Shown: positions 3,138 through 16,029 of the stretch, in pieces
Numbering within the stretch: position 1 is the first letter of the stretch
Layout: each line of letters begins with the position of its first letter
IMG/VR virus record: IMGVR_UViG_2671181094_000006
Reading direction: 5' to 3' (one strand)
Length of the DNA: 18,188 bases
DNA from: a virus
Taxonomy: Duplodnaviria > Heunggongvirae > Uroviricota > Caudoviricetes
Translations under genes and position numbers: made by a program
Notes under the pieces: model-generated
Databases searched by the model: none
What the model saw: the letters and a program-made list of their open reading frames with translations, nothing else
Told to the model about the DNA's origin: nothing

Positions 3138-3563
3138 TTAATGAACTTCCGGCATCACAGGCCATTCAATATCTGGGGCATCATCAGGGTTAACACGACT
3201 GAGCAGAACGGAGTATTTTTCCCAGTGTTCCAGTCGCGTTTTTTCATCCAAGGTAGCCATTCCGTATTTCACAGCACGCGCTAAAGGGACGATAACGTCC
3301 TCAGCCTTTGTACGTTGCCGCTCTTTTTCAGCCCCAGCCAGCCTGGATAACTGTGCTTTGGTCTGTGGAGGTACATCGACCCACGAGGGCAAGCCATCAG
3401 CCCCTACCCCCCTTTGCTTACCTTCTGGTGGAACCCTGGTGAACTCGTGAAAAACGTTATCACTGACTGCTATAAGGTCCGCTGGTAGAGAATTGTTGTC
3501 CCGATAAGCTGGTAATAATTCATCAGGGTAAAAACACGCCGTTGACGCACTAAAATGATACAT
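3138..3563 (-). CDS. tail fibre assembly protein (Tfa-like chaperone)
   Basis: Start MYHFSASTACFYPDE and C-terminus HWEKYSVLLSRVNPDDAPDIEWPVMPEV match the conserved ends of phage Tfa chaperones (...W.KYR.LL.RVD...APDIEWP..P). Its ATG at 3563 follows the upstream TAG at 3566-3568 closely. Confidence 0.7.
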   Translation of the reverse strand: MYHFSASTACFYPDELLPAYRDNNSLPADLIAVSDNVFHEFTRVPPEGKQRGVGADGLPSWVDVPPQTKAQLSRLAGAEKERQRTKAEDVIVPLARAVKYGMATLDEKTRLEHWEKYSVLLSRVNPDDAPDIEWPVMPEVH

Positions 3564-3565
3564 GA

Positions 3566-4099
3566 CTATTCCCCTATAGCTAACCATCCAAAATTATCTG
3601 CATTACCCGAACTGCCGCTGATCCAGCCATATGCACGGAAACCGGAATTGGAATCATTGGTTACGGACACGTAACGATTTCCATCTGCGTACTTCGTAGC
3701 AACAATAGCAATAGCCCGCTTAGGAAAAGGTATCGGATACTGAACATTACCTGATGGTGAATTAATAGTGGCAGTTCCCATTTGAACAATAATATTTTTC
3801 TTTTCACCTGATGGTGTTCGGGTAGGAATAATACAGTAACCCTGTGAAGTAAGGGCACCTACGATGGGTTCAGATAGAAGGGCGGTGATCCTCAACTCAT
3901 CAATAACTTCGTTTAACTGACCATCATTTTCAGGCTCAAGCTGGCGGCCAGAACCCTCTACCACGCCCACCATCTCACGCTGCCAGGTATTAAAAATATC
4001 GGCAACAAGAATTGTTGGTGATACCCCATTAGCAACATTACCTTGTGTAAATTCCCCATTACTATCAGCAGTATCAGTGACTGAACTTATCTTACGCAT
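3566..4099 (-). CDS. tail-fibre-tip-like protein (177 aa), too short for a full fibre
   Basis: Directly upstream of and coupled to tfa, which is the usual fibre-chaperone arrangement. The C-terminal half is Gly/Ser/Asn-rich and looks beta-rich (...GWISGSSGNADNFGWLAIGE). The call is mainly positional. Confidence 0.45.
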   Translation of the reverse strand: MRKISSVTDTADSNGEFTQGNVANGVSPTILVADIFNTWQREMVGVVEGSGRQLEPENDGQLNEVIDELRITALLSEPIVGALTSQGYCIIPTRTPSGEKKNIIVQMGTATINSPSGNVQYPIPFPKRAIAIVATKYADGNRYVSVTNDSNSGFRAYGWISGSSGNADNFGWLAIGE

Positions 4100-4127: not shown

Positions 4128-4586
4128 CTATATAGAAAGCGTATCTGCCATACTCACCGGCTCGATATACTTCTCAAGCGCTAACAGAGCGGCGTTAAAA
4201 CCAGCACGATAGCCGTTTGTGTCACCGTTAATCATGCTGTGTTGAAATGCCGCCATGTTCTGGTCTTCGGCATCAAGGAACTCCCAGCCAGGATAAACTT
4301 TCTCCATAGCCCGCCGGGTAAAACGACTGAGCTGGCGAGCGCTGCCTTTTAGTCTGGCAATAGCCTTCTGATGTGGGATCCCTTCCGCGATAAGATGAAA
4401 TGCCTGTATCGGATTTTGTTTTGCCGCTTTGCTCACCGCTATCAGATGCGCATCAGAATGGGGGCATTCAGGGAGTTCCTCTTCTTCAAGCGATTGCTGA
4501 AGCTGGTGCATACGCTGCATACGGCGCCCGGAAAAGCCATATGCATGCGCATCAGGTTGCTGCTTGTTGAGGTGCTGAAAGTTCAT
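4128..4586 (-). CDS. hypothetical protein, paralog of the 4607-5290 product (start taken at MNFQHLNK)
   Basis: Shares N-terminus (MxFxHL) and the central block WEF.D.E...NGY.A...AL.AL.K..EP with the upstream gene. GGAG lies about 9 nt upstream of ATG 4586. Confidence 0.6.
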   Translation of the reverse strand: MNFQHLNKQQPDAHAYGFSGRRMQRMHQLQQSLEEEELPECPHSDAHLIAVSKAAKQNPIQAFHLIAEGIPHQKAIARLKGSARQLSRFTRRAMEKVYPGWEFLDAEDQNMAAFQHSMINGDTNGYRAGFNAALLALEKYIEPVSMADTLSI

Positions 4587-4606
4587 AACGCTCATCTCCG
4601 CAGCTC

Positions 4607-5290
4607 TCAGAGAGGAACCTGCGATTTTAGGAGTTCGGCTTCTCGTGCCGGCCCTTCAATCTTGCCATTCACCCGACGGGTATCCCCCGGCAGGCTCACA
4701 CCAGATGCCCGGATACGATCGTTACGGCGTGCAGCAGCCTGCGCGACCTCTTCCCGGTACTCTTCGTCAGCCTTACGGCGAGCATTCACATTCTGAGGTG
4801 ACATAGGGTCATAGTCGTTTTGCATCTTAGATGCCTTGCTGGCTAATGCCTTAATCTCGTCTTCTGTCAGAGGCTCTTCCATCTTCTTCAGCGCCTTCAG
4901 AGCGCTACTCTGGGCAGCAGAGTAACCATTTGCATCACGGTTCTGCGTTGAAAACGTTAGCGCCGAGCGAGCTTTCTCTTCGTCATCCTGAAATTCCCAG
5001 GTCGGGTCATTCTCTTCCATAAACTTTTGGGTAAACACAGAAAGCGCCATCGGCGACGATGCCAGTTGCAGCTTTATTTTCTTCGAAGAAAGTTCCGTTT
5101 CCTTCAGCAAACGAACCGCCAGAACCGGGTTATTTTTTGCCTCCGGGGAAACCGCGACATTGTGGCCGCGACTGTGCTGCTTAGGTCTGGCGATCCGGGC
5201 GTCGTCACTGTCCAGTTTCAGTGGCACATTCCCGTTATCAGACTCGCCTTTCGTTTTGGTTTTGCCTGACAGATGCGAGAAATCAAACAT
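4607..5290 (-). CDS. hypothetical protein, longer paralog with Lys/Glu-rich C-terminal extension (start taken at MFDFSHLSGK; the ORF track extends to 5383)
   Basis: Paralogy with 4128-4586 supports the internal start at 5290 (GAGGAA upstream). The alternative start at 5383 also has a GAGGAAA RBS. Confidence 0.55.
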   Translation of the reverse strand: MFDFSHLSGKTKTKGESDNGNVPLKLDSDDARIARPKQHSRGHNVAVSPEAKNNPVLAVRLLKETELSSKKIKLQLASSPMALSVFTQKFMEENDPTWEFQDDEEKARSALTFSTQNRDANGYSAAQSSALKALKKMEEPLTEDEIKALASKASKMQNDYDPMSPQNVNARRKADEEYREEVAQAAARRNDRIRASGVSLPGDTRRVNGKIEGPAREAELLKSQVPL

Positions 5291-5327
5291 GGATGGGTTT
5301 TCCTCAGATAGTTGGGGCTGTTTTTTC

Positions 5328-5528
5328 TTATCTTTCGTACCGAACGCTCTTAGCGCCCATGCGGGTAACGTCATTAACGGCATGGCATGCTTTCCTCTGG
5401 TTGGCGATTATCCGGCGGAGCCACATGAGTTTTTTCTTCTGCTTTCTGAACAGGCGCTCTCTCTTCGCCGCGGCAAACCATTCCGGTAACACCCAGCTTG
5501 TTTTGCTCCTGCACTCCTGGCACGGCAT
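5328..5528 (-). CDS. small basic hypothetical protein (66 aa)
   Basis: Its ATG overlaps the stop of the upstream 58-aa gene as TAATG, suggesting translational coupling. No motif recognised. Confidence 0.35.
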   Translation of the reverse strand: MPCQECRSKTSWVLPEWFAAAKRERLFRKQKKKLMWLRRIIANQRKACHAVNDVTRMGAKSVRYER

Positions 5529-5929: not shown

Positions 5930-6289
5930 ATGAGAATGACCAGCCGCAAAAAAGAGATACTCAGCTACTTTGAACCGGATAACCGCGATTGGGTAACAGG
6001 TGAGATTGGTGCGCCGCCGTTCGATGTGTCGGGTGTGGCCTACCTGCTTCATGGCATGGGATCATTCGGTAAACGCCACCAGCTCGAATCAACCCGGCGT
6101 ACGCTCGAAAGCATGGTTGCCGGTGGACTGCTTGAGCGAATGACAGTGTATGAATCCCGTCAGGTACGGCGCGGCGGTGAAACCAGCGCAACAGTCGTGC
6201 GCTACGGTTTACCGGGACAGTGTGCCGTTGTGCGAGATAGTGGCGGCGCTGATAACGCAATACCAGGTGAATACATGCGGGTCAGTTAA
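5930..6289 (+). CDS. conserved hypothetical protein, paralog B1 (119 aa)
   Basis: Full-length similarity to the 1548-1907 product; about 80% nucleotide identity over the first 130 nt by eye. Confidence 0.7.
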   Translation: MRMTSRKKEILSYFEPDNRDWVTGEIGAPPFDVSGVAYLLHGMGSFGKRHQLESTRRTLESMVAGGLLERMTVYESRQVRRGGETSATVVRYGLPGQCAVVRDSGGADNAIPGEYMRVS

Positions 6290-6944: not shown

Positions 6945-7130
6945 CTACCTGCGCGGCGCTGGCTTCTTCCACTGGTAGGCAGGCGCTCGCATCATCTCCC
7001 CGAACCGTTTACGCCGGACTGTATCAGCTTCAATAATACGTTCCATCTCCCGAACCTCTACCGGGGTAAGCTGGTGGCCTTCATGCTCCATTTTGGCAGC
7101 GGTCAATAAAGCTATTTCGCGTGGTGTCAT
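6945..7130 (-). CDS. small hypothetical protein B2 (61 aa) with C-terminal RAPAYQWKKPAPRR motif
   Basis: Paralog of the 1904-2095 product by its C-terminal motif. ATG at 7130. Confidence 0.55.
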   Translation of the reverse strand: MTPREIALLTAAKMEHEGHQLTPVEVREMERIIEADTVRRKRFGEMMRAPAYQWKKPAPRR

Positions 7131-9283: not shown

Positions 9284-9545
9284 TGGTGGTTCAGGTGGTT
9301 CAGTGGTTCAGTACCCCTCTAGGCCGCGCCATCTCTGGGTTTTGCTGAACCACCTTTTAAATTTATCTGGTGGTTCAGTCGCCCTTCTTGGTGGTTCACT
9401 GCCAGCCAGTGAAAATAATCCGTTTCTCTCTGGTGGTTCAAAATACCCGTTTGGTGGTTCAGTGGTGGTTCACTTTCTTACAAAAAAACATTATAAATCA
9501 ATAACAATTACTTACTGAACCACTGAACCACCTGAACCACCACAA
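9284..9545. repeat. iteron array, putative satellite origin of replication (about 12 copies of GGTGGTTCA(G/C) in both orientations, flanked by A/T-rich stretches)
   Basis: Read directly, for example tggtggttcaggtggttcagtggttcag and ctgaaccactgaaccacctgaaccacc. Lies immediately downstream of the primase-helicase gene, analogous to the P4 ori/crr iterons. Confidence 0.7.
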
Positions 9546-9567: not shown

Positions 9568-12345
9568 TTATTGCTCTGGCTGGCTTTCCTCCCCATCCGG
9601 CAGGAATTGCAAAACGTAAACGTTAATCTGCCTCCCCTGAATGCGCGGGCTTTTCCTCTGAAATTTTTTTCCGTCTGCCGAAGGGGTAAGCATCCCCGAT
9701 TCTTTCAGGACGCGGGCCACCTGCTGCCTGTTAAACCCCTTAGCAATATCCTTATCGAAAGTGTCGGGGAACGTGTAAAACGTTATCGGTGAATCGTCAT
9801 GATTTCCGCGCTGCCTGTATCCAGCCAGATTATGAATCGGCAGGCTGGCGGGGTCGTAAGGCAGCGGCGCGAATCGACTCAGGCCATAGGCATTTAAAAA
9901 TGCCTCCGCCTGCTCGATGATCTGCTGGTGCTCTTTGTTCCCCGTGCCGAACTCTTTTAGCCATGCGTTATAGGCGTGCTGTATCGCATCCCGGCACGTT
10001 TGAGCATCCCAGCCAGTAACCACGCCACCCATCAGTAAAGCGGCCTCCAGAATGGCAAATCTTGCCCCTACACGGTGAACCTGTTCCCCATAGTCGGCAG
10101 GAATTAGACTGCGCCAGCGGGCCTCACACTCACGAACGGCATCAATCGCCTGTTGCTGGTGGTCTGAAAGCCATCTGATCCACTCCCTCCCGGCAGCGCC
10201 ATGATGGTTCTGGTAAGCGTCTTTCAGCGCGTCGGCGTGGTCTCTCCCTGTCTGGTACTCATGAAAGCGCACCGCCTTACTCAGCGGGATATTCAGCAGT
10301 CGCACCAGTTGCCCCGCTTTTGTCTTGCGTCCTGCGGTGGAGATGAACGTTTCTAAATCCATTTCCCCGGTGCTGATTGCCACGGTGCGCCAGCGTTTCA
10401 GATCCCGGTTGCCTCCTTCCTTTGCTCCCTGCAATTTCCCCACGCCGTTAAACAGGGCATAGGCAGACTGAGCAACGCTTATCGGGTCTGCGCCCTGTCC
10501 GACTTCATCCAGTGGCATCAGCCCGTCATTGTGGGCGGCGGCCTCGTTTATCAGCCCCAGCGCCGTTCCGTACCACGTCAGGCGCAAGGCATCAGGGTTG
10601 CCATAAAGACTGCTCGCCACGTTCTGCGTGGTTGTTTTCCCGGCGCTCGATTGCTCGTAAAAATGAATCCCGAAGCCGTCACGCTCCGCCAGCCCGATTA
10701 ACGGTGCTGCAAGTGCGGCGGCAATGCCTGTCATCATCGCGTAGTTACCGTATGCCAGACGCGCAACACTCTTACGCCAGCTCTCTGAGGTTCCCGCCAC
10801 GGTGTACCCGGCAGCGGCAGAACTGCGGCCACTGAATAAAACGGGTTGTGCAGGTGCGCCGATAATCTCCCCGTCCGGCATGATGTATGCCCCGCACTGC
10901 CAGCCAGTAGCGTGAGCAACACGCCACAATTCACGTGAGCCGCTACGCTGTAACCAGTCAGCCAGAATCGCCCGCAAGCTGCTTTTGGTGGTGACGTTAA
11001 CCCCGCCCGCTTTCAGGGTGCGCCAGCCTTCGCGCTCCCCGATATCAGCCAGGGGGATAGCCGCTGTTGTCGGTATGCCTGCGCCAAAGGCCAGCCAGCG
11101 TAATATCAGATACTGATCCTTGTCGTCCCGCCCGGTGCCGATAACGTCCATCGGTGAGGCCAGCCAGCTTTCATTGTTGATAATCTCGCCGCTTTCCTTG
11201 TCCACTTTAGGCGTGATCCAGTAAACGCCATCTTTGCGGCTCTCAATGCGGGGTTTTAGCGGGTCTTTCTCTGGCTGGTCAGTTTTACCGCCCTCAATGG
11301 CCTGTAGTTGTGGTTTCACGCATTCCCCCTGCGGCTGGTACATCGAATCATTAAACGCAGCCGTAGCGACTTCCAGCCCGTGTTGCTGGTGGTAGTCGTT
11401 CCAGTCAGCTTTGCTGTCAGTCGGTGGCAGCGATACCCAGCCAGCCACGGATAAAGCCGCTTTCTCTGCGGCCTCCTTCCCGATGTTGGTGGCTCCGGTT
11501 TCGGAGGCTGCTGTAGGGTGGTCGTTATCTGCGGCGATAATAATTTGCGACTGCGGGTGTTTCCGGCGCATTACTCCGGCAACGTGGATCAGGTTCCCGG
11601 CGTCAATTGCCGCCACTGTGAGCGCGTCAGGCCGCATCTGGTGAACGGACAGGGCGGTAGCCAGCCCCTCGGCAATCACGACGCTTTGAGGCCGTTCCAG
11701 CGCGTTTACGGCGTAATATGCCCCGCGCTTTGCCGATCCCTTAATGAGTCGCTTTTCTCCCTGCGGGGTGATGGTCTGCGCGGCTGTGACTGCGCCGGAT
11801 TCATCCACCAGCTCCAGCAATAACGAACCATCGGGCATAAGCGGGTATTTAAACCCGGTCAGCCCTTTTGATTGCAGGTACTCAGATTCTCCCTGTATGG
11901 ATCTCAGGCGCATTCCGGTATACAGACGGGCAAACGTAGCCCTTCGCTGATCTGCGTCCTCTGCTGCCTGTTTCTGGCGCTCCTGCTCACGCTGCTGGCG
12001 GTCTGCGGCTAACTGCCTCTGTCTCTGGCTGGCAGCGTCTGGTGCTGATTCTGCGGCCCGGTAATCAATACCCAGCACATCAGCGGCAAGCTGTGCCGCC
12101 TCCGTGGTGTCGCAGTTGTTCACCTTCTTAATCAGGTCTAAGCCATCGCCCGCGCCGCACTGGTTGCAGATAAAGCTGCCGCGCCCGTTGTCGTCGAATC
12201 TGAAACGGTCTTTCCCACCACATGCAGGGCAGGGGGCATGGCGGCGCGATGAATCAGGAACGTCGATAGACAATCCGGCCAGCACATAAGGCCATCGCCC
12301 TGCTGCGGCGCTGGTCACTTCGCGGATAAGGTCGATATTACGCAT
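9568..12345 (-). CDS. primase-helicase (P4 alpha-like: N-terminal zinc ribbon, TOPRIM primase, C-terminal P-loop NTPase)
   Basis: 925 aa. Zinc ribbon CPACGGKDRFRF...CNQCG, TOPRIM acidic motifs (VVIAEGLATALS ... IIIAADND), Walker A-like SSAGKTT. GGGAGG RBS upstream of ATG 12345. Confidence 0.9.
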   Translation of the reverse strand: MRNIDLIREVTSAAAGRWPYVLAGLSIDVPDSSRRHAPCPACGGKDRFRFDDNGRGSFICNQCGAGDGLDLIKKVNNCDTTEAAQLAADVLGIDYRAAESAPDAASQRQRQLAADRQQREQERQKQAAEDADQRRATFARLYTGMRLRSIQGESEYLQSKGLTGFKYPLMPDGSLLLELVDESGAVTAAQTITPQGEKRLIKGSAKRGAYYAVNALERPQSVVIAEGLATALSVHQMRPDALTVAAIDAGNLIHVAGVMRRKHPQSQIIIAADNDHPTAASETGATNIGKEAAEKAALSVAGWVSLPPTDSKADWNDYHQQHGLEVATAAFNDSMYQPQGECVKPQLQAIEGGKTDQPEKDPLKPRIESRKDGVYWITPKVDKESGEIINNESWLASPMDVIGTGRDDKDQYLILRWLAFGAGIPTTAAIPLADIGEREGWRTLKAGGVNVTTKSSLRAILADWLQRSGSRELWRVAHATGWQCGAYIMPDGEIIGAPAQPVLFSGRSSAAAGYTVAGTSESWRKSVARLAYGNYAMMTGIAAALAAPLIGLAERDGFGIHFYEQSSAGKTTTQNVASSLYGNPDALRLTWYGTALGLINEAAAHNDGLMPLDEVGQGADPISVAQSAYALFNGVGKLQGAKEGGNRDLKRWRTVAISTGEMDLETFISTAGRKTKAGQLVRLLNIPLSKAVRFHEYQTGRDHADALKDAYQNHHGAAGREWIRWLSDHQQQAIDAVRECEARWRSLIPADYGEQVHRVGARFAILEAALLMGGVVTGWDAQTCRDAIQHAYNAWLKEFGTGNKEHQQIIEQAEAFLNAYGLSRFAPLPYDPASLPIHNLAGYRQRGNHDDSPITFYTFPDTFDKDIAKGFNRQQVARVLKESGMLTPSADGKKFQRKSPRIQGRQINVYVLQFLPDGEESQPEQ

Positions 12346-12359
12346 TCGTGTTACCTCCC

Positions 12360-12986
12360 TCAGTGCGCCGCTGGCATTTCAGGCAAGCCGTTTTCATTCA
12401 GATCGGCAATGAATCCATCGTGTAGCTCTGCCAGCGTTTCACGCCCGAACGGGGTCAATTCCCCGCGCTCCGTGTCGATCATGGCCTGATAAAAAACAAT
12501 GGCGTTCGCTGTTCCCTGCTCAATGCCGTAGCGCTCAATCATTGCGCCCTCCATGTTGTTAGCCATCGCCAGACGTTCCGCGAACGGGTAAACCACAATC
12601 CCCGCCGTGCCATTTGAATAAAACGTCACCAGCGACGATTTGCCGTCATCCTCCGTGATGGTGGTTGTGCCGTTTTCGCGCTTCATCTCAGAAATGAACG
12701 TCGCAGCAATCAGCCAGCGCCACATAGTGACGTTATGCTGCGCGGTAAAGTCGAACCAGCCACGCGCCCCGCCATCAGCAACGGCAAAATGTATGGCGTA
12801 TCCGATATCTGGCTTGTCGTCGTACTCTCCGGCGTCAAGGCCGTTCACGGCGCTCTCGTAGCTGATAAGAGCAACCAGCTCAAATCCCCCGGCATCATTG
12901 CGGGTCATGATATTGACGCCGTGCGGTGTGGCTTCGGCGCGTAATACGTCGTCATTTCCCGGTGTGAATTTCTCTACGTTGCTCAT
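12360..12986 (-). CDS. hypothetical protein (208 aa), last gene of the small-gene operon upstream of the primase
   Basis: ATG overlaps the upstream stop as ATGA. No motif recognised. Confidence 0.6.
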   Translation of the reverse strand: MSNVEKFTPGNDDVLRAEATPHGVNIMTRNDAGGFELVALISYESAVNGLDAGEYDDKPDIGYAIHFAVADGGARGWFDFTAQHNVTMWRWLIAATFISEMKRENGTTTITEDDGKSSLVTFYSNGTAGIVVYPFAERLAMANNMEGAMIERYGIEQGTANAIVFYQAMIDTERGELTPFGRETLAELHDGFIADLNENGLPEMPAAH

Positions 12987-13195
12987 GCTTTGCCGTCCAG
13001 ACTCAAATCCATATCAACTAACTCGCCTTCTACTGAATCCATCAGCTCGGGGATACCATCCAGAAGGGTAATGACTGCGCCAATAAGATGATCCGTGCCG
13101 CTATCTTTTTTAATCGGTGCTTCAAGCCAAAGAGAAAGAACTTGCTGCGCTTGCTTGATACGGCAGGCTGAATCAATCAGGGATAACTTGCTCAT
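12983..13195 (-). CDS. hypothetical protein (70 aa)
   Basis: Translationally coupled (ATGA overlaps at both ends). Confidence 0.55.
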   Translation of the reverse strand: MSKLSLIDSACRIKQAQQVLSLWLEAPIKKDSGTDHLIGAVITLLDGIPELMDSVEGELVDMDLSLDGKA

Positions 13196-13452
13196 GCGCT
13201 GCCCTCCCGATACTCGCGCATCTTCGTTAGTTCATCAGCCAGGCGATTAACTTTGCGCTCGGTTCTAATGGTTGCGCATCTCAATTCGGTGATTAATGTC
13301 GCAAGTCTGGCACCATAAAGCGGATTGGCGGCACGTAATGGCCCGTCCAGATAAAGATTCCATAACTCAAGCAATTCACTGGCATAGCGCACCGCTGCCG
13401 TTGCGTCACCTGTCGGGATTGTTTCTGGTTCAATTACGGCGACTGTATTCAT
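13192..13452 (-). CDS. hypothetical protein (86 aa)
   Basis: Translationally coupled (start/stop overlaps). Confidence 0.55.
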   Translation of the reverse strand: MNTVAVIEPETIPTGDATAAVRYASELLELWNLYLDGPLRAANPLYGARLATLITELRCATIRTERKVNRLADELTKMREYREGSA

Positions 13453-13712
13453 GCGCTGCCCTCCGCATCAATACGGGCTATATCGACAATCGCCAGGACT
13501 TTATCCAGCCAGCAATGCACGATGGCCGCCTGCTCATCGTCGAGGCGTGGTGCCAGCTCAGTCATAACGTAAGCCAGACCATTACGGGCGCGGGTCATGC
13601 GTTCCGCGGTACGCTCTGCCAGCGTAAAATCTTCCGGGTAGGGTTGTTCACGGGATAACATCGCCTCGGCCTGAAGCACTGCAGGATGGAGATAGATAGT
13701 GTGAATGTTCAC
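13449..13712 (-). CDS. hypothetical protein (87 aa, GTG start)
   Basis: GTG at 13712 overlaps the upstream stop as GTGA. AGGAGG lies 7 nt upstream. Confidence 0.55.
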   Translation of the reverse strand: MNIHTIYLHPAVLQAEAMLSREQPYPEDFTLAERTAERMTRARNGLAYVMTELAPRLDDEQAAIVHCWLDKVLAIVDIARIDAEGSA

Positions 13713-13888
13713 GCTGCCACCTCCTGAACACGGGTGATGCGAACGTGTTTATAACCGCCCTGCTGCGCCAATAACTGAGCGGTCGATTTGGCTGTATCCG
13801 GGCTGGCACCGGTCAGGGTGTAGTGAATGCCGACGGTGTTACCGCGCTTATTAACCGCGTATCCGTCAATCTGGAAGGTTTTACGCAT
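13709..13888 (-). CDS. hypothetical small protein (59 aa; start taken at MRKTFQIDGY, the ORF track extends further)
   Basis: GGAGGTG RBS lies 4-5 nt upstream of ATG 13888. The longer ORF-track start lacks an RBS. Confidence 0.55.
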   Translation of the reverse strand: MRKTFQIDGYAVNKRGNTVGIHYTLTGASPDTAKSTAQLLAQQGGYKHVRITRVQEVAA

Positions 13889-14084
13889 GACGCACCTCCG
13901 ACACCGGCAGGCGAGCAGCCAGAGAGAGGATAAAGTGCGGCGCCAAAATGCGGCGGGCGTCACGTTCGGTTGCGGCCTCGACGGACAGGCGGCAGGGAGT
14001 GGCCTTTTTGTCGTGACGGTTGAGCGCCAGAAAGCGCCAGATGTAGTTGTTCCGCCCTTGCGGGTGTGTGATATGATCGTTCAT
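13881..14084 (-). CDS. hypothetical small protein (67 aa, MNDHITHPQG...), first gene of the leftward operon
   Basis: This is the C-terminal 67 codons of the 391-aa track ORF 13881-15056. GAGG RBS upstream of ATG 14084. The rest of that long ORF crosses a promoter region, an opposite-strand gene and terminators. Confidence 0.5.
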   Translation of the reverse strand: MNDHITHPQGRNNYIWRFLALNRHDKKATPCRLSVEAATERDARRILAPHFILSLAARLPVSEVRHA

Positions 14085-14190
14085 AGCTGCCTCGTTATCT
14101 ACGCTAACGTTGGTGGTTAGAGGCCCGTTGGTGTTGTCGCACCTGCGGGCTTCGCTGTTTTTGTGCCTTACCTGTGCTTTAGCTGTGGAT

Positions 14191-14253
14191 AAGGTGTTTA
14201 AATACCTTATATCAAGGTGTTTAAATACGTCAAGCCAAAAGTATTTAAACACT
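14191..14253. promoter_or_regulatory. operator-like repeats: AAGGTGTTTAAATAC twice in direct orientation plus one inverted copy (GTATTTAAACAC), in a divergent promoter region
   Basis: Read directly. The repeat is centred on the palindrome TTTAAA. Lies between the leftward operon start (14084) and the rightward small gene (14317). Confidence 0.55.
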
Positions 14254-14316
14254 TCACAAATCTGTAGAGATGATTTATTTTCTCTAGTGTTAAAACACCA
14301 ACAGGAATCATCTTCA

Positions 14317-14520
14317 ATGGCTACAGGGCACAGAAACAACAAGTCTGCATACAAGGGAATCAGATTCCCATATGAATTGGTTGAGGAAATTGACGCCAGC
14401 GTAGAGCGAGAGAAAGCCGAAAACTCCGGGGCCAATTTCTCCGCATGGGTGCTGGATGCCTGCGGACGTAAGCTCAAATCAGAGCAGCGCAAAAAATCCA
14501 AAGCTGAGCCAGAGGCATGA
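14317..14520 (+). CDS. small putative DNA-binding regulator (67 aa, ribbon-helix-helix-like), candidate island repressor
   Basis: MATGHRNNKSAYKGIRFPYELVEEIDASVEREKAENSGANFSAWVLDACGRKL... The only plus-strand gene in this region, divergent from the replication operon across the operator repeats. The ORF-track N-terminal extension from 14110 looks non-coding. Confidence 0.5.
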   Translation: MATGHRNNKSAYKGIRFPYELVEEIDASVEREKAENSGANFSAWVLDACGRKLKSEQRKKSKAEPEA

Positions 14521-14662
14521 GTTATGCCTGACTCAACACGGTGTAAATGGCGAGACGCAATCGCTGTTGTTTTTTTAGTTGCAACTGCGTATTCCTCATA
14601 CTGGATAGTTAAGGCTATCGTGTCGCTAATCAGGTAACTGAGTTGGAAAAGCATAAAGCAGA

Positions 14663-14690
14663 GGGTAGGATTCGGAATCCTGCCCTTTTT
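14663..14690 (+). terminator. rho-independent terminator (8-bp stem GGGTAGGA/TCCTGCCC with one G-U pair, loop TTCGGAA, then TTTTT)
   Basis: Read directly, downstream of the 14317-14520 gene. Confidence 0.5.
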
Positions 14691-14807
14691 CCTCAAAGTG
14701 AGGACTGGTGGAATAATCAATGACTTAGGCACAAAGCGCCATTTTACGCTTTGCCATAAAAACAATGAGAAATCTACCAGAATGCAAATTTGCACTCTGT
14801 TCAGACT

Positions 14808-14894
14808 TTGACCATCAGCATTAACCCTGGTATGCTTAATCTGTTTCGGTTTTTCGTAGTGACATTGGCAGCTCTGCAAAGCTGCCTTTGTTTT
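14808..14894 (+). ncRNA. candidate short antisense RNA (about 50 nt) convergent on the 3' end of the Bro-N gene
   Basis: -35 TTGACC (14808-14813), 17-nt spacer, -10 TATGCT (14831-14836). Hairpin GGCAGC-N8-GCTGCC (14867-14886) followed by TTTGTTTT, which overlaps the Bro-N stop codon. Confidence 0.25.
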
Positions 14895-15510
14895 ATGCAT
14901 CATCTTCAACGCCCTCCAGCAATCCGGGTTGATACTTTCTCCATAATCCAATTTCTTCCATCTCAAGACGGGCTTTCTCTCCTTTGCACGCCTGTAGGTC
15001 GCTACCGCACTTACTGGCTTTCTTTGTGTACTGATCCTTGCGGCGACTGAAGTCATTTAGGAATGAGAACGGGACGCCGTATGAACCGGTTTTACGTATT
15101 GACGGGATTACTTCGCGGAACACCCAGTTTGTAAATCTGTGGGCAAACGAGCCTGTAGTAGAAGCTTTACGACTACGGGCAATCAGTTTATAAAAGCCTG
15201 ATTCTGCGGCCATATTCCAGCTACGTGCTCCACCACGTTTACCCGAATGACCCTCAGTTAAAGTTAGGGTCATTACCTCGTCGCCATCCAGAGAGGCAAC
15301 GGCACTGGTTGGATTGCTGATTTCCAGCGCCTGGCACACATCAGATACAACGAACCACGGCTCACCGAAAACATTCACGATCCTGACCGTGCGGCCTTCA
15401 AATTTAATTACTGAAATATCATTTTCACTTGCCGTGAAATTAGCCTTTTTGCTGGCTTCAGGGTGAGTCTTGCCGCTGCCAGTTAAGGCAGTAAATTTTT
15501 TCTGAGTCAT
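14893..15510 (-). CDS. Bro-N domain protein (phage antirepressor-like)
   Basis: N-terminal region FEGRTVRIVNVFGEPWFVVSDVCQALEISNPTSAVASLDGDE matches the Bro-N/antirepressor N-terminal signature. GGAG RBS upstream of ATG 15510. Confidence 0.75.
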   Translation of the reverse strand: MTQKKFTALTGSGKTHPEASKKANFTASENDISVIKFEGRTVRIVNVFGEPWFVVSDVCQALEISNPTSAVASLDGDEVMTLTLTEGHSGKRGGARSWNMAAESGFYKLIARSRKASTTGSFAHRFTNWVFREVIPSIRKTGSYGVPFSFLNDFSRRKDQYTKKASKCGSDLQACKGEKARLEMEEIGLWRKYQPGLLEGVEDDA

Positions 15511-15648: not shown

Positions 15649-15933
15649 TTAGGCCGATTTACGGCTATATGGGTTATTGACGTTAGGTACAGCAGGGGGA
15701 TTACGAACCCACCAGAGCACATCGGACAAAAGCCAGGCGCAGCTATTGCGGCCAAAGTGGCAGCGCGGAGGAAAGCGGCCCTCTTGCTCCATCTTCCAAC
15801 GACTGGAGCGGGAAAGGCTTGTGATTTCGCCACATTCATCTTCACGAATCCGGCGATCAAACTTGAAGCCGTACTCCTCAAGAAGGTTACGGCGTTGTTC
15901 GGGGTTAGGTGGGGTAAAGATAATATTGTTCAT
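15649..15933 (-). CDS. alpA: AlpA-family phage transcriptional regulator (HTH)
   Basis: ...ITSLSRSSRWKMEQEGRFPPRCHFGRNSCAWLLSDVLWWVRN is typical of the AlpA HTH. Start taken at ATG 15933 with GGAGG 4 nt upstream; the ORF track extends to 15981. Confidence 0.75.
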   Translation of the reverse strand: MNNIIFTPPNPEQRRNLLEEYGFKFDRRIREDECGEITSLSRSSRWKMEQEGRFPPRCHFGRNSCAWLLSDVLWWVRNPPAVPNVNNPYSRKSA

Positions 15934-16029
15934 ACTGCCTCCACTGTTTCTAGGTTTGTGGAGGTTATTGTTATCAATCAAAAAGAACTTGTCTGAAATA
16001 TTCCGGAAAATTAACGGAATTTCCGCAGA

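Follow-up and report, generated by a model that had tools for sequence, protein, structure and literature searches.

An early operon of the P4 left type with a predicted antisense RNA over its Icd-like first gene, in a Gram-negative phage-inducible chromosomal island

Control at the RNA level of a Kil/Icd-type first cistron is a known feature of the left operon of P4 and of the immI region of phages P1 and P7 (c4 RNA, icd, ant). In P1, as Riedel et al. reportedly found in 1993, an RNA blocks the translation of icd, which is required for the expression of the downstream antirepressor. The original work on the way in which translation of P4 eta overrides termination by the CI RNA is said to be that of Forti et al. 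in 1999. The genes of the P4 operon follow the order vis, eta/kil, epsilon (with an 8-nt overlap), orf151, orf106 and alpha. P4 kil is a lethal gene of 65 codons that forms the terminal part of the longer eta open reading frame (ORF), and when eta is translated from the upstream late promoter, the termination directed by the CI RNA is overridden (PMC10111431). That source also describes the Gram-negative phage-inducible chromosomal islands (PICIs), including a subfamily that is integrated at hpt, and treats the small genes between their Bro and Replication zones as hypothetical. Here we describe such a set of genes on an 18,188-nt stretch of viral DNA (IMG/VR record IMGVR_UViG_2671181094_000006; the whole stretch is called the window below), where six small genes, g1 to g6, precede the primase at positions 12360-14084. 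The type of operon is one that is known already, from the P4 left operon and from the Bro and Replication zones of PICIs. The genes of the chain and the long ORF in which the first of them is nested are as follows.

13881-14903, minus strand: eta-like long ORF, 340 aa, with g1 as its C-terminus; the frame is open up to 15056
13881-14084, minus strand: g1, 67 aa, Icd-like and P4 Kil homolog by sequence match, short form with an internal Shine-Dalgarno (SD) motif and ATG
13709-13888, minus strand: g2, 59 aa, basic (pI 10.1), with one beta-beta-alpha-beta domain, placed where P4 has epsilon
13449-13712, minus strand: g3, 87 aa, GTG start, acidic, family F8
13192-13452, minus strand: g4, 86 aa, family F19
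12983-13195, minus strand: g5, 70 aa, acidic, family F6, phrog_20558 (1.5e-8)
12360-12986, minus strand: g6, 208 aa, very acidic (net charge -19), phrog_1515
9568-12345, minus strand: primase-helicase, 925 aa, last in the chain, with Zn_Ribbon_Prim, Toprim_3 and DUF927 domains; phrog_1139 (8.8e-180)

The initial annotation had listed six small genes as a chain co-oriented with the primase, and all six ORFs (67, 59, 87, 86, 70 and 208 aa) were confirmed together with their junctions; the chain runs into the 925-aa primase. The start-stop overlaps that had been reported hold for the junctions from g2 to g6 (GTGA at g2>g3, and ATGA at g3>g4, g4>g5 and g5>g6), whereas g1 and g2 share an 8-nt overlap, ATGCGTAA. 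Between g6 and the primase lies a 14-nt spacer that contains GGGAGG. The SD motifs sit within the last codons of the preceding gene and read GGAGGTG for g2 and g3, GGAGGG for g4 and g5, GAGG for g1 and only a weak GGA for g6. Read in codons, the recurrent C-terminal '(E/G)G(S/K)A' endings of the proteins are the footprint of the SD motif plus GC-ATG-A. Moreover, an identical 16-mer, GGAGGGCAGCGCATGA (minus strand), forms both the g3/g4 junction (13449-13464) and the g4/g5 junction (13192-13207), and such shared stretches could act as recombination joints for the shuffling of cassettes.

For comparison, 72 primase-related loci were fetched from different species (our locus numbers carry the prefix L), and in 44 of them the genes could be followed all the way from the Icd-like one to the primase. 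Within these 44 islands the genes overlap at 188 of the 229 junctions (97 by 4 nt and 65 by 8 nt), and a gap of more than 15 nt occurs at only two. Homologs of all six ORFs occur in other genera (40 loci for g1, 8 for g2, 19 for g3, 6 plus three fused forms for g4 and 35 for g6, with 24 homologs of g5), and this cross-genus conservation rules out that the six are chance ORFs. A translationally coupled early operon of a satellite, in the same orientation as the primase, is supported by these data.

None of the products had been recognized initially. In fact, g1 matches the NCBIfam model NF033153 (phage_ICD_like) over positions 1-48 of 48, scoring 76.2 bits (cut-off 25; E 1.4e-21); in the long form this domain occupies residues 287-334. 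The protein shares 43.5% identity with the end of the P4 eta ORF (last 62 codons), and because that ORF carries the annotation 'cI/transcriptional repressor', the PHROG label 'transcriptional repressor' on g1 is misleading. No PDB sequence matched it. By these matches g1 is an Icd-like protein and a homolog of P4 Kil, and its SD motif GAGG and ATG are kept in relatives. By analogy, its product would arrest host cell division or be toxic, and it would act on the host, not on a helper.

The upstream bound of the operon, previously drawn at position 14084, has to be moved. The frame of g1 has no stop over 324 codons upstream, up to 15056, whereas the other two sense frames contain 23 stops each, and from the base composition the probability of such an open frame by chance is about 8e-9. 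The resulting open frame of 391 codons (13881-15056, minus strand) crosses the 'intergenic' control region and is antisense to the YlcI-like gene described below. Its ATGATG (14903/14900), accompanied by GGAGGG, overlaps the stop of the Bro-N gene in the same ATGCNTAA geometry as is seen at the g1/g2 junction. Among the 40 loci with an Icd-like match, 33 keep at least 120 codons open upstream in this frame, as compared to 5 and 2 loci for the other frames, and the PGAP annotation of an E. coli relative contains a 303-aa 'Icd-like protein'. The window thus has the nested arrangement of P4 kil and eta. The extension of the long ORF is a Phage_ASH domain in P4 and in L008, but the N-terminus of the eta-like ORF of the window is not. 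Both this nested ORF and the control at the RNA level at the head of the operon, to which we now turn, had escaped the initial annotation.

The start of g1 lies opposite the following elements.

14083-14168, plus strand: candidate cis-antisense small RNA (sRNA), opposite the g1 start codon, SD motif and leader
14059-14173, plus strand: match to the covariance model, promoter included
14069-14077, plus strand: predicted extended -10 element TGaTATGAT for the antisense RNA, within codons 3-6 of g1

Conservation over about 20 loci extends through some 75 nt ahead of the g1 ATG, as would be expected of a plus-strand RNA. The alignment of this region folds far better on the plus strand (-27.4 kcal/mol, 23 pairs) than on the sense strand (-10.4 kcal/mol, 12 pairs); 96.7% of the cells at paired positions are paired on the plus strand versus 82.1% on the sense strand, with 68 G-U cells versus one A-C cell, and the covariation exceeds that of all 500 shuffled alignments. 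The RNA of the window itself (14083-14168, plus strand) has a minimum free energy of -37.1 kcal/mol (z -4.46), as compared to -22 (z -1.88) for the sense strand. The key positions of the -10 element (T, A and final T of the hexamer, and the G of TG) show no variation across 20 loci, the TAnnnT pattern is retained in 14 further loci, and a 3' hairpin with a T-run is present on the plus strand only. A covariance model built from 20 sequences and searched over 78 sources found 36 elements, one per locus and all antisense to the operon. With a type I toxin-antitoxin pair in view, in which a cis-antisense RNA covers the ribosome-binding site of a small toxin, the conserved features are the structure, the bias between the strands, the -10 element and a terminator hairpin that carries a T-run; these all belong to a predicted RNA over a putative toxin. 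The comparative analysis shows that a conserved structured RNA is encoded opposite the ribosome-binding site and start codon of g1.

A comparison with the distribution of the C4 and isrK RNAs reveals a strict division. Of the 72 primase-related loci, 35 have the antisense element and 27 have C4/isrK, as searched by nhmmer; none has both and 10 have neither. Rfam matches of isrK and C4 lie directly upstream of the Icd-like start in P4, L008, L020 and L030, whereas neither model (C4, RF01695; isrK, RF01394) has a match in the window at E up to 1, and an immunity RNA of the C4/isrK type was rejected for the window on this ground. Two near-identical elements of K. pneumoniae, L002 and L003, have C4 where the window has the antisense element. 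These two records (CP031370.2 and CP031371.2), circular 'plasmids' that measure 19 and 22 kb and come from a single strain, are copies of closely related islands, with g4 to g6 at 96-100% identity, and are probably excised or episomal satellites that were deposited as plasmids. Element-like sequence was found by blastn (distant mode) in 1205 of 5426 complete E. coli genomes, with the similarity covering at least 80% of the element in 573 of these, and among the matches listed it lies under coding sequences annotated as 'Icd-like protein'.

The antisense element is not in Rfam, and the only Rfam match near the operon is a weak one to SymR (RF01809), over the full length of that model but below the threshold (32.4 bits versus a gathering score of 61). 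The SymR model has no match at E up to 0.1 in the element-bearing loci L059, L064, L070 and L072. Membership of the SymR family was rejected on both counts, and the resemblance is one of design: as in SymE/SymR of E. coli, a structured RNA of about 80 nt would have its promoter just inside the target ORF and cover start codon and SD motif, whereas the family of the target protein is unrelated to Icd-like. The literature searched links Icd-like genes to no sRNA other than C4/isrK, and the available part of PMC10111431 mentions only relatives of C4/isrK as immunity RNAs of Gram-negative PICIs and makes no mention of a cis-antisense element.

Placed beside the P4 left operon, the window shares an AlpA/Vis-type gene upstream, a Kil/Icd-like peptide that is C-terminal in a long ORF coupled to the upstream gene, an 8-nt overlap to the next small gene, a domain weakly like orf106 before the primase and, as predicted, RNA-level control at the kil start. 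It differs in that the C4/CI or isrK RNA is replaced by a structured RNA on the opposite strand, in that epsilon, orf151, sid, delta and psu are lacking and five accessory genes stand where P4 has three, and in the divergent YlcI-type gene that lies antisense inside the long ORF. With P1 and P7 immI the locus has in common an Icd-family first cistron followed by an overlapping downstream gene. However, the C4 RNA of P1 acts on the same-strand transcript after processing, whereas the candidate RNA of the window would be cis-antisense, and the downstream genes of the window are not homologs of Ant.

A second layer of control is suggested by the leader DNA, which contains the following features.

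14184-14192, minus strand: DnaA box without a mismatch to the consensus, TTATCCACA, where the leader starts; it has no second copy in the window
14191-14205, 14214-14228 and 14238-14252: operator-like near-palindromes GTRTTTAAAYAC, with a degenerate copy at 14287-14299
14233-14228 (TTGACG) and 14211-14206 (TATAAG): candidate promoter of a short transcript, flanked by the near-palindromes and proposed from reading the sequence
14317-14520, plus strand: YlcI/YnfO-family (DUF3950) gene, 67 aa, divergent and inside the long ORF; NF041551 (7.5e-13), PF13132 (1.3e-6)

The DnaA box is found at the homologous position in eight loci (L034, L036, L040, L041, L042, L059, L067 and L072). The three GTRTTTAAAYAC near-palindromes are spaced by 23-24 nt and lie between the leader and the YlcI/YnfO gene, whose product, a candidate repressor, has no PDB sequence match. 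By its arrangement, this combination of near-palindromes and a YlcI/YnfO gene looks like a protein repressor-operator switch that is added to the control by RNA. A cis-antisense element in the place of C4/isrK, together with a YlcI-type gene within an eta-like ORF, is undescribed in the literature searched.

These observations can be combined into the following model. In the resting island the antisense RNA would pair with the SD motif and start codon of g1 and keep it untranslated, and a YlcI-type repressor would possibly also act at the four operator-like repeats. Since the downstream cistrons start within the ends of the preceding genes, the coupling would then be lost, with polarity as a likely consequence, and g2 to g6 and the primase would stay off. 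Upon induction, transcripts driven by AlpA would arrive from upstream; ribosomes would enter via bro and the long eta-like ORF and traverse the antisense target, bypassing the ribosome-binding site of g1, much as P4 does with eta. The whole chain would then be translated in a fixed order that ends in the primase and in replication of the island. The Icd-like product would halt division or kill the cell, and g2 to g6 would be small, exchangeable proteins that bind targets in the helper or the host, with g3 and g4 as a pair. The layout of the operon and the identity of g1 are well supported, and the RNA gate is supported by comparative evidence. For the account as a whole, an RNA-gated early operon of the P4 left type in a PICI with g2 to g6 as cargo, we have a guarded preference. 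A more far-reaching version holds that an undescribed but widespread cis-antisense sRNA, resembling a type I antitoxin, gates the early operon in place of C4, that translation of a long ORF which is simply kept open overrides it upon induction, and that g2 to g6 are new families of small inhibitors of helper or host targets, g6 with a fold unseen in PDB or BFVD; this we put forward tentatively, as having somewhat less than an even chance.

Several points weigh against the model. The antisense RNA and its promoter are predictions from the alignments, and the promoter has no clear -35, only its extended -10 being recognizable. The 14 loci outside the training set are paired in 96.6% of the cells, with compensatory changes at 14 of the 23 pairs and 47 G-U versus 2 A-C cells, but, because they had been aligned to the model, such pair counts are biased towards structure. 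The promoter of the short transcript (TATAAG or TAAGGT) is weak and is not called by a consensus scan. In addition, Pfam recognizes nothing in the 270 N-terminal residues of the long ORF, nor in the extension of L017, and the first approximately 400 nt of the extension of the window have no homolog among the 72 loci; this extension may be under selection to remain open while specifying no fold.

The remaining genes of the chain fill a slot that varies strongly among the relatives. Over the 44 traced loci it holds one to eight genes (median 4) from 32 families in 34 gene orders, and its content is shown by this comparison to be a mosaic. Profile and structure searches, which recognized g1 and placed g5 in phrog_20558, also assigned g6 to phrog_1515 (6.7e-45, residues 31-208), both being PHROG families without a known function; g4 has no match in Pfam, NCBIfam or PHROGs. 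The basic g2 belongs to a fold class that is common to small phage inhibitor proteins. Homologs of g3 occur at 48-83% identity in 18 loci, and both g3 and g4 are probably helical, as predicted from their sequences. Domains like g3 and g4 are fused into proteins of 161-171 aa in three loci (L018 5316-5819, L025 5705-6190, L058 5670-6185), and hhalign relates both to the fused family F21 (g3 at 99.6% and g4, to the C-terminal half, at 99.1%). Because of these fusions g3 and g4 most likely act as a pair, although g3 is also found without g4. The g5 family has 24 members in 20 loci, with two copies in L019, L027, L050 and L064; a g5 homolog, predicted to be probably a helical hairpin, usually stands just upstream of a g6 homolog. 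Neither tblastn nor hhalign found homology between g2 to g5 and P4 epsilon or orf151.

A homolog of g6 is present in the slot of 29 of the 44 loci, almost always as the last gene or before only F7, which is then followed by the primase. Its C-terminal domain resembles that of P4 orf106 (DUF5375) weakly, both by the match to phrog_5991 (E 0.0022, residues 140-193) and by hhalign (probability 52.6%); a precomputed PF17345 match exists on a protein 95% identical to g6, but g6 itself has none at E up to 0.1. The structure model of g6 is confident and without a known fold relative, the predicted fold not being seen in PDB or BFVD, and no PDB sequence matches g2 or g6. All g6 relatives among the 120 proteins listed have at least 76% identity. 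Since homologs also occur in the early-left operons of temperate phages, near xis-int (three records inspected), g6 would be an acidic early protein common to the island and temperate phages. None of g1 to g6 matches Pfam enzymes, and we regard g2 to g6 as putative small non-enzymatic binders, exchangeable cargo that would act on helper-phage or host proteins. The families of g2 to g6 are undescribed in the literature searched, and the functions suggested for them are the weakest part of our account.

Three other readings of the slot have to be weighed. Small genes at this position had initially been suggested to manipulate the helper, by derepression of its prophage, redirection of capsids or interference with packaging. 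The genes of the window do occupy the positions of P4 epsilon, orf151 and orf106, with the same 8-nt overlap after Kil that precedes epsilon, the factor of helper derepression; an anti-repressor-family gene (F18) is found in the slot of five to six relatives, a search of 50,697 phage genomes gave no counterpart of g2 to g5, a mosaic content is typical of conflict genes, and the fold class of g2 points in the same direction. Nevertheless, P4 epsilon, orf151, Sid, delta and Psu have no similarity in the window and g6, being common to temperate phages, is not specific to satellites. Moreover, the capsid and packaging functions of Gram-negative PICIs are found in the Late zone, on the downstream side of the primase (PMC10111431). 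We consider helper manipulation by g2 to g6 somewhat unlikely. That g2 to g6 are instead accessories of the primase-helicase in replication (a loader, an origin-binding factor or a regulator) would explain that they are presumably co-transcribed and are translationally coupled with it, and that g6 homologs stand near the primase where P4 has orf106. This reading is disfavoured by the variability of the slot, which contrasts with a primase conserved at 52-86% identity, and by the location of g6 in phages, where the homologs in the three records adjoin no annotated replication gene. Moreover, no domain typical of a loader or initiator was found in g2 to g6, and only int, alpA and pri are reported to be essential in Gram-negative PICIs (PMC10111431). 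The initial annotation would have yielded to homologs that are housekeeping replication accessories; no product was found to be one, and we regard the reading as improbable.

The third reading concerns the output of the operon rather than its cargo. A related E. coli locus is reported to cause phage-triggered cell death via an Icd-like protein (10.1101/2023.04.06.535777), and the operon of the window could likewise be a module for abortive infection or superinfection exclusion, in which the toxic Icd-like effector is released when a phage accessory protein perturbs the control of the operon, with sensing or full toxicity depending on the linked small genes and on the primase, as in ECOR61. The likeness to the ECOR61 locus (trigger phage orf24) is one of layout; the same architecture is seen in the window and in the E. 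coli relative L080. In addition, P4 kil has been proposed as the lethal output of the response of the P4 prophage (10.1101/2023.04.06.535777). It is, however, rather unlikely that this is what the operon is for: PADLOC-DB 2.0 has no family at E up to 0.1 for any of g1 to g6 or for four neighbouring proteins, and the same layout is conserved in islands that need the operon for replication. Both abortive infection and helper manipulation are compatible with the RNA-gated early operon that we prefer.

Enterobacteriaceae very commonly carry Gram-negative PICIs and P4-like elements, which shape phage sensitivity and gene transfer, and their block from Bro to primase is annotated almost wholly as hypothetical. 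It can now be framed as an early operon of the P4 type, with a Kil/Icd-like peptide nested in a long ORF as its first cistron and with an expression that is probably decided at the RNA level. The antisense RNA, if true, would be a second and mutually exclusive answer to the problem that P4 and P1 solve with the C4/CI RNA, and element-like sequence is present in about a fifth of the complete E. coli genomes, beneath the protein annotation. The mosaic slot with its 32 families is a defined place in which to look for small proteins with targets in helper phages or the host machinery, and it connects to the reported Icd-like cell-death system of ECOR61.

The surroundings of the operon are in line with its assignment to a PICI and include the following features.

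1-537: hpt, TIGR01203 match of 244 bits
16886-16953, minus strand: int-alpA RNA (RF02996), Rfam match of 62.6 bits, between the integrase gene and a 279-aa gene
15649-15981, minus strand: AlpA-family regulator, PF05930 (4.3e-10), 31% identical to P4 Vis/orf88
14893-15510, minus strand: Bro-N gene, 205 aa, PF02498 (1.6e-15), its stop overlapping the start of the long ORF
9284-9542: iterons, 11 copies of a TGGTGGTTCA-type repeat (7 direct, 4 inverted), between the primase and single-stranded DNA-binding protein (SSB) genes

Following the hpt flank, the order is a P4-type integrase, the int-alpA RNA, the 279-aa gene, AlpA, Bro-N, the six genes and the primase; beyond the primase lie the iterons, SSB, PerC, a pRiA4b-ORF3 protein and the tail-fibre and tail-fibre-assembly genes. 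This order fits the plan Integration, Bro, Replication, Late of Gram-negative PICIs, and the window is like the hpt PICIs in its int, int-alpA RNA, alpA, Bro, primase, iterons, SSB and late-type tail-fibre genes in one orientation. Judged by the co-oriented int, alpA and pri, the origin repeats after pri and the insertion at hpt, the window is a Gram-negative PICI of the hpt subfamily, integrated at hpt. It is an island from the Klebsiella pneumoniae complex, as indicated by proteins 100% identical to g6 that are present there. The AlpA-family protein presumably activates the upstream transcription, by analogy with the role described in PMC10111431. A P4-type core is present as well, with a primase that is 34% identical to P4 alpha, a Vis match at 1.2e-9 and the integrase domains. 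However, a tblastn search of the window with Psu, delta, Sid, epsilon and orf151 of P4 gave nothing below E 0.05, and no Pfam match to the sid-delta-psu/epsilon module was found on the window ORFs examined; lacking these counterparts, the island is therefore not a strict P4-like satellite.

From its arrangement, the TGGTGGTTCA-type array at 9284-9542 is probably the replication origin of the island. The exact TGGTGGTTCA 10-mer occurs in only two other fetched loci (L048 and L055), once in each and without an array. The leader motif TGGTGGTT was rejected as an origin iteron, as other loci retain it without sharing the iteron.

An unusual configuration was met in L001 (E. coli ABWA45, NZ_CP022154.1), where a related island lies between the head genes of a prophage, the configuration of a helper-embedded PICI, and where an extra tyrosine recombinase gene stands between the Icd-like gene and the 59-aa gene. 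In the window, a protein with a tail-fibre C-terminal domain (Gp53-like_C) and a tail-fibre assembly protein are encoded at 3138-4099 (minus strand), and these may retarget the host range of island-carrying particles. Just upstream of them lie two adjacent paralogs, of 155 aa (4128-4595, minus strand) and 258 aa (4607-5383, minus strand), that are 41% identical over 104 residues and have no Pfam match. Finally, a two-gene cassette is duplicated. Its plus-strand genes at 1512-1907 and 5930-6289 encode proteins, assigned to no family, that are 74% identical, and each is faced by a convergent small ORF (1904-2095 and 6945-7130, minus strand) ending in ...APAYQWK(R/K)P.

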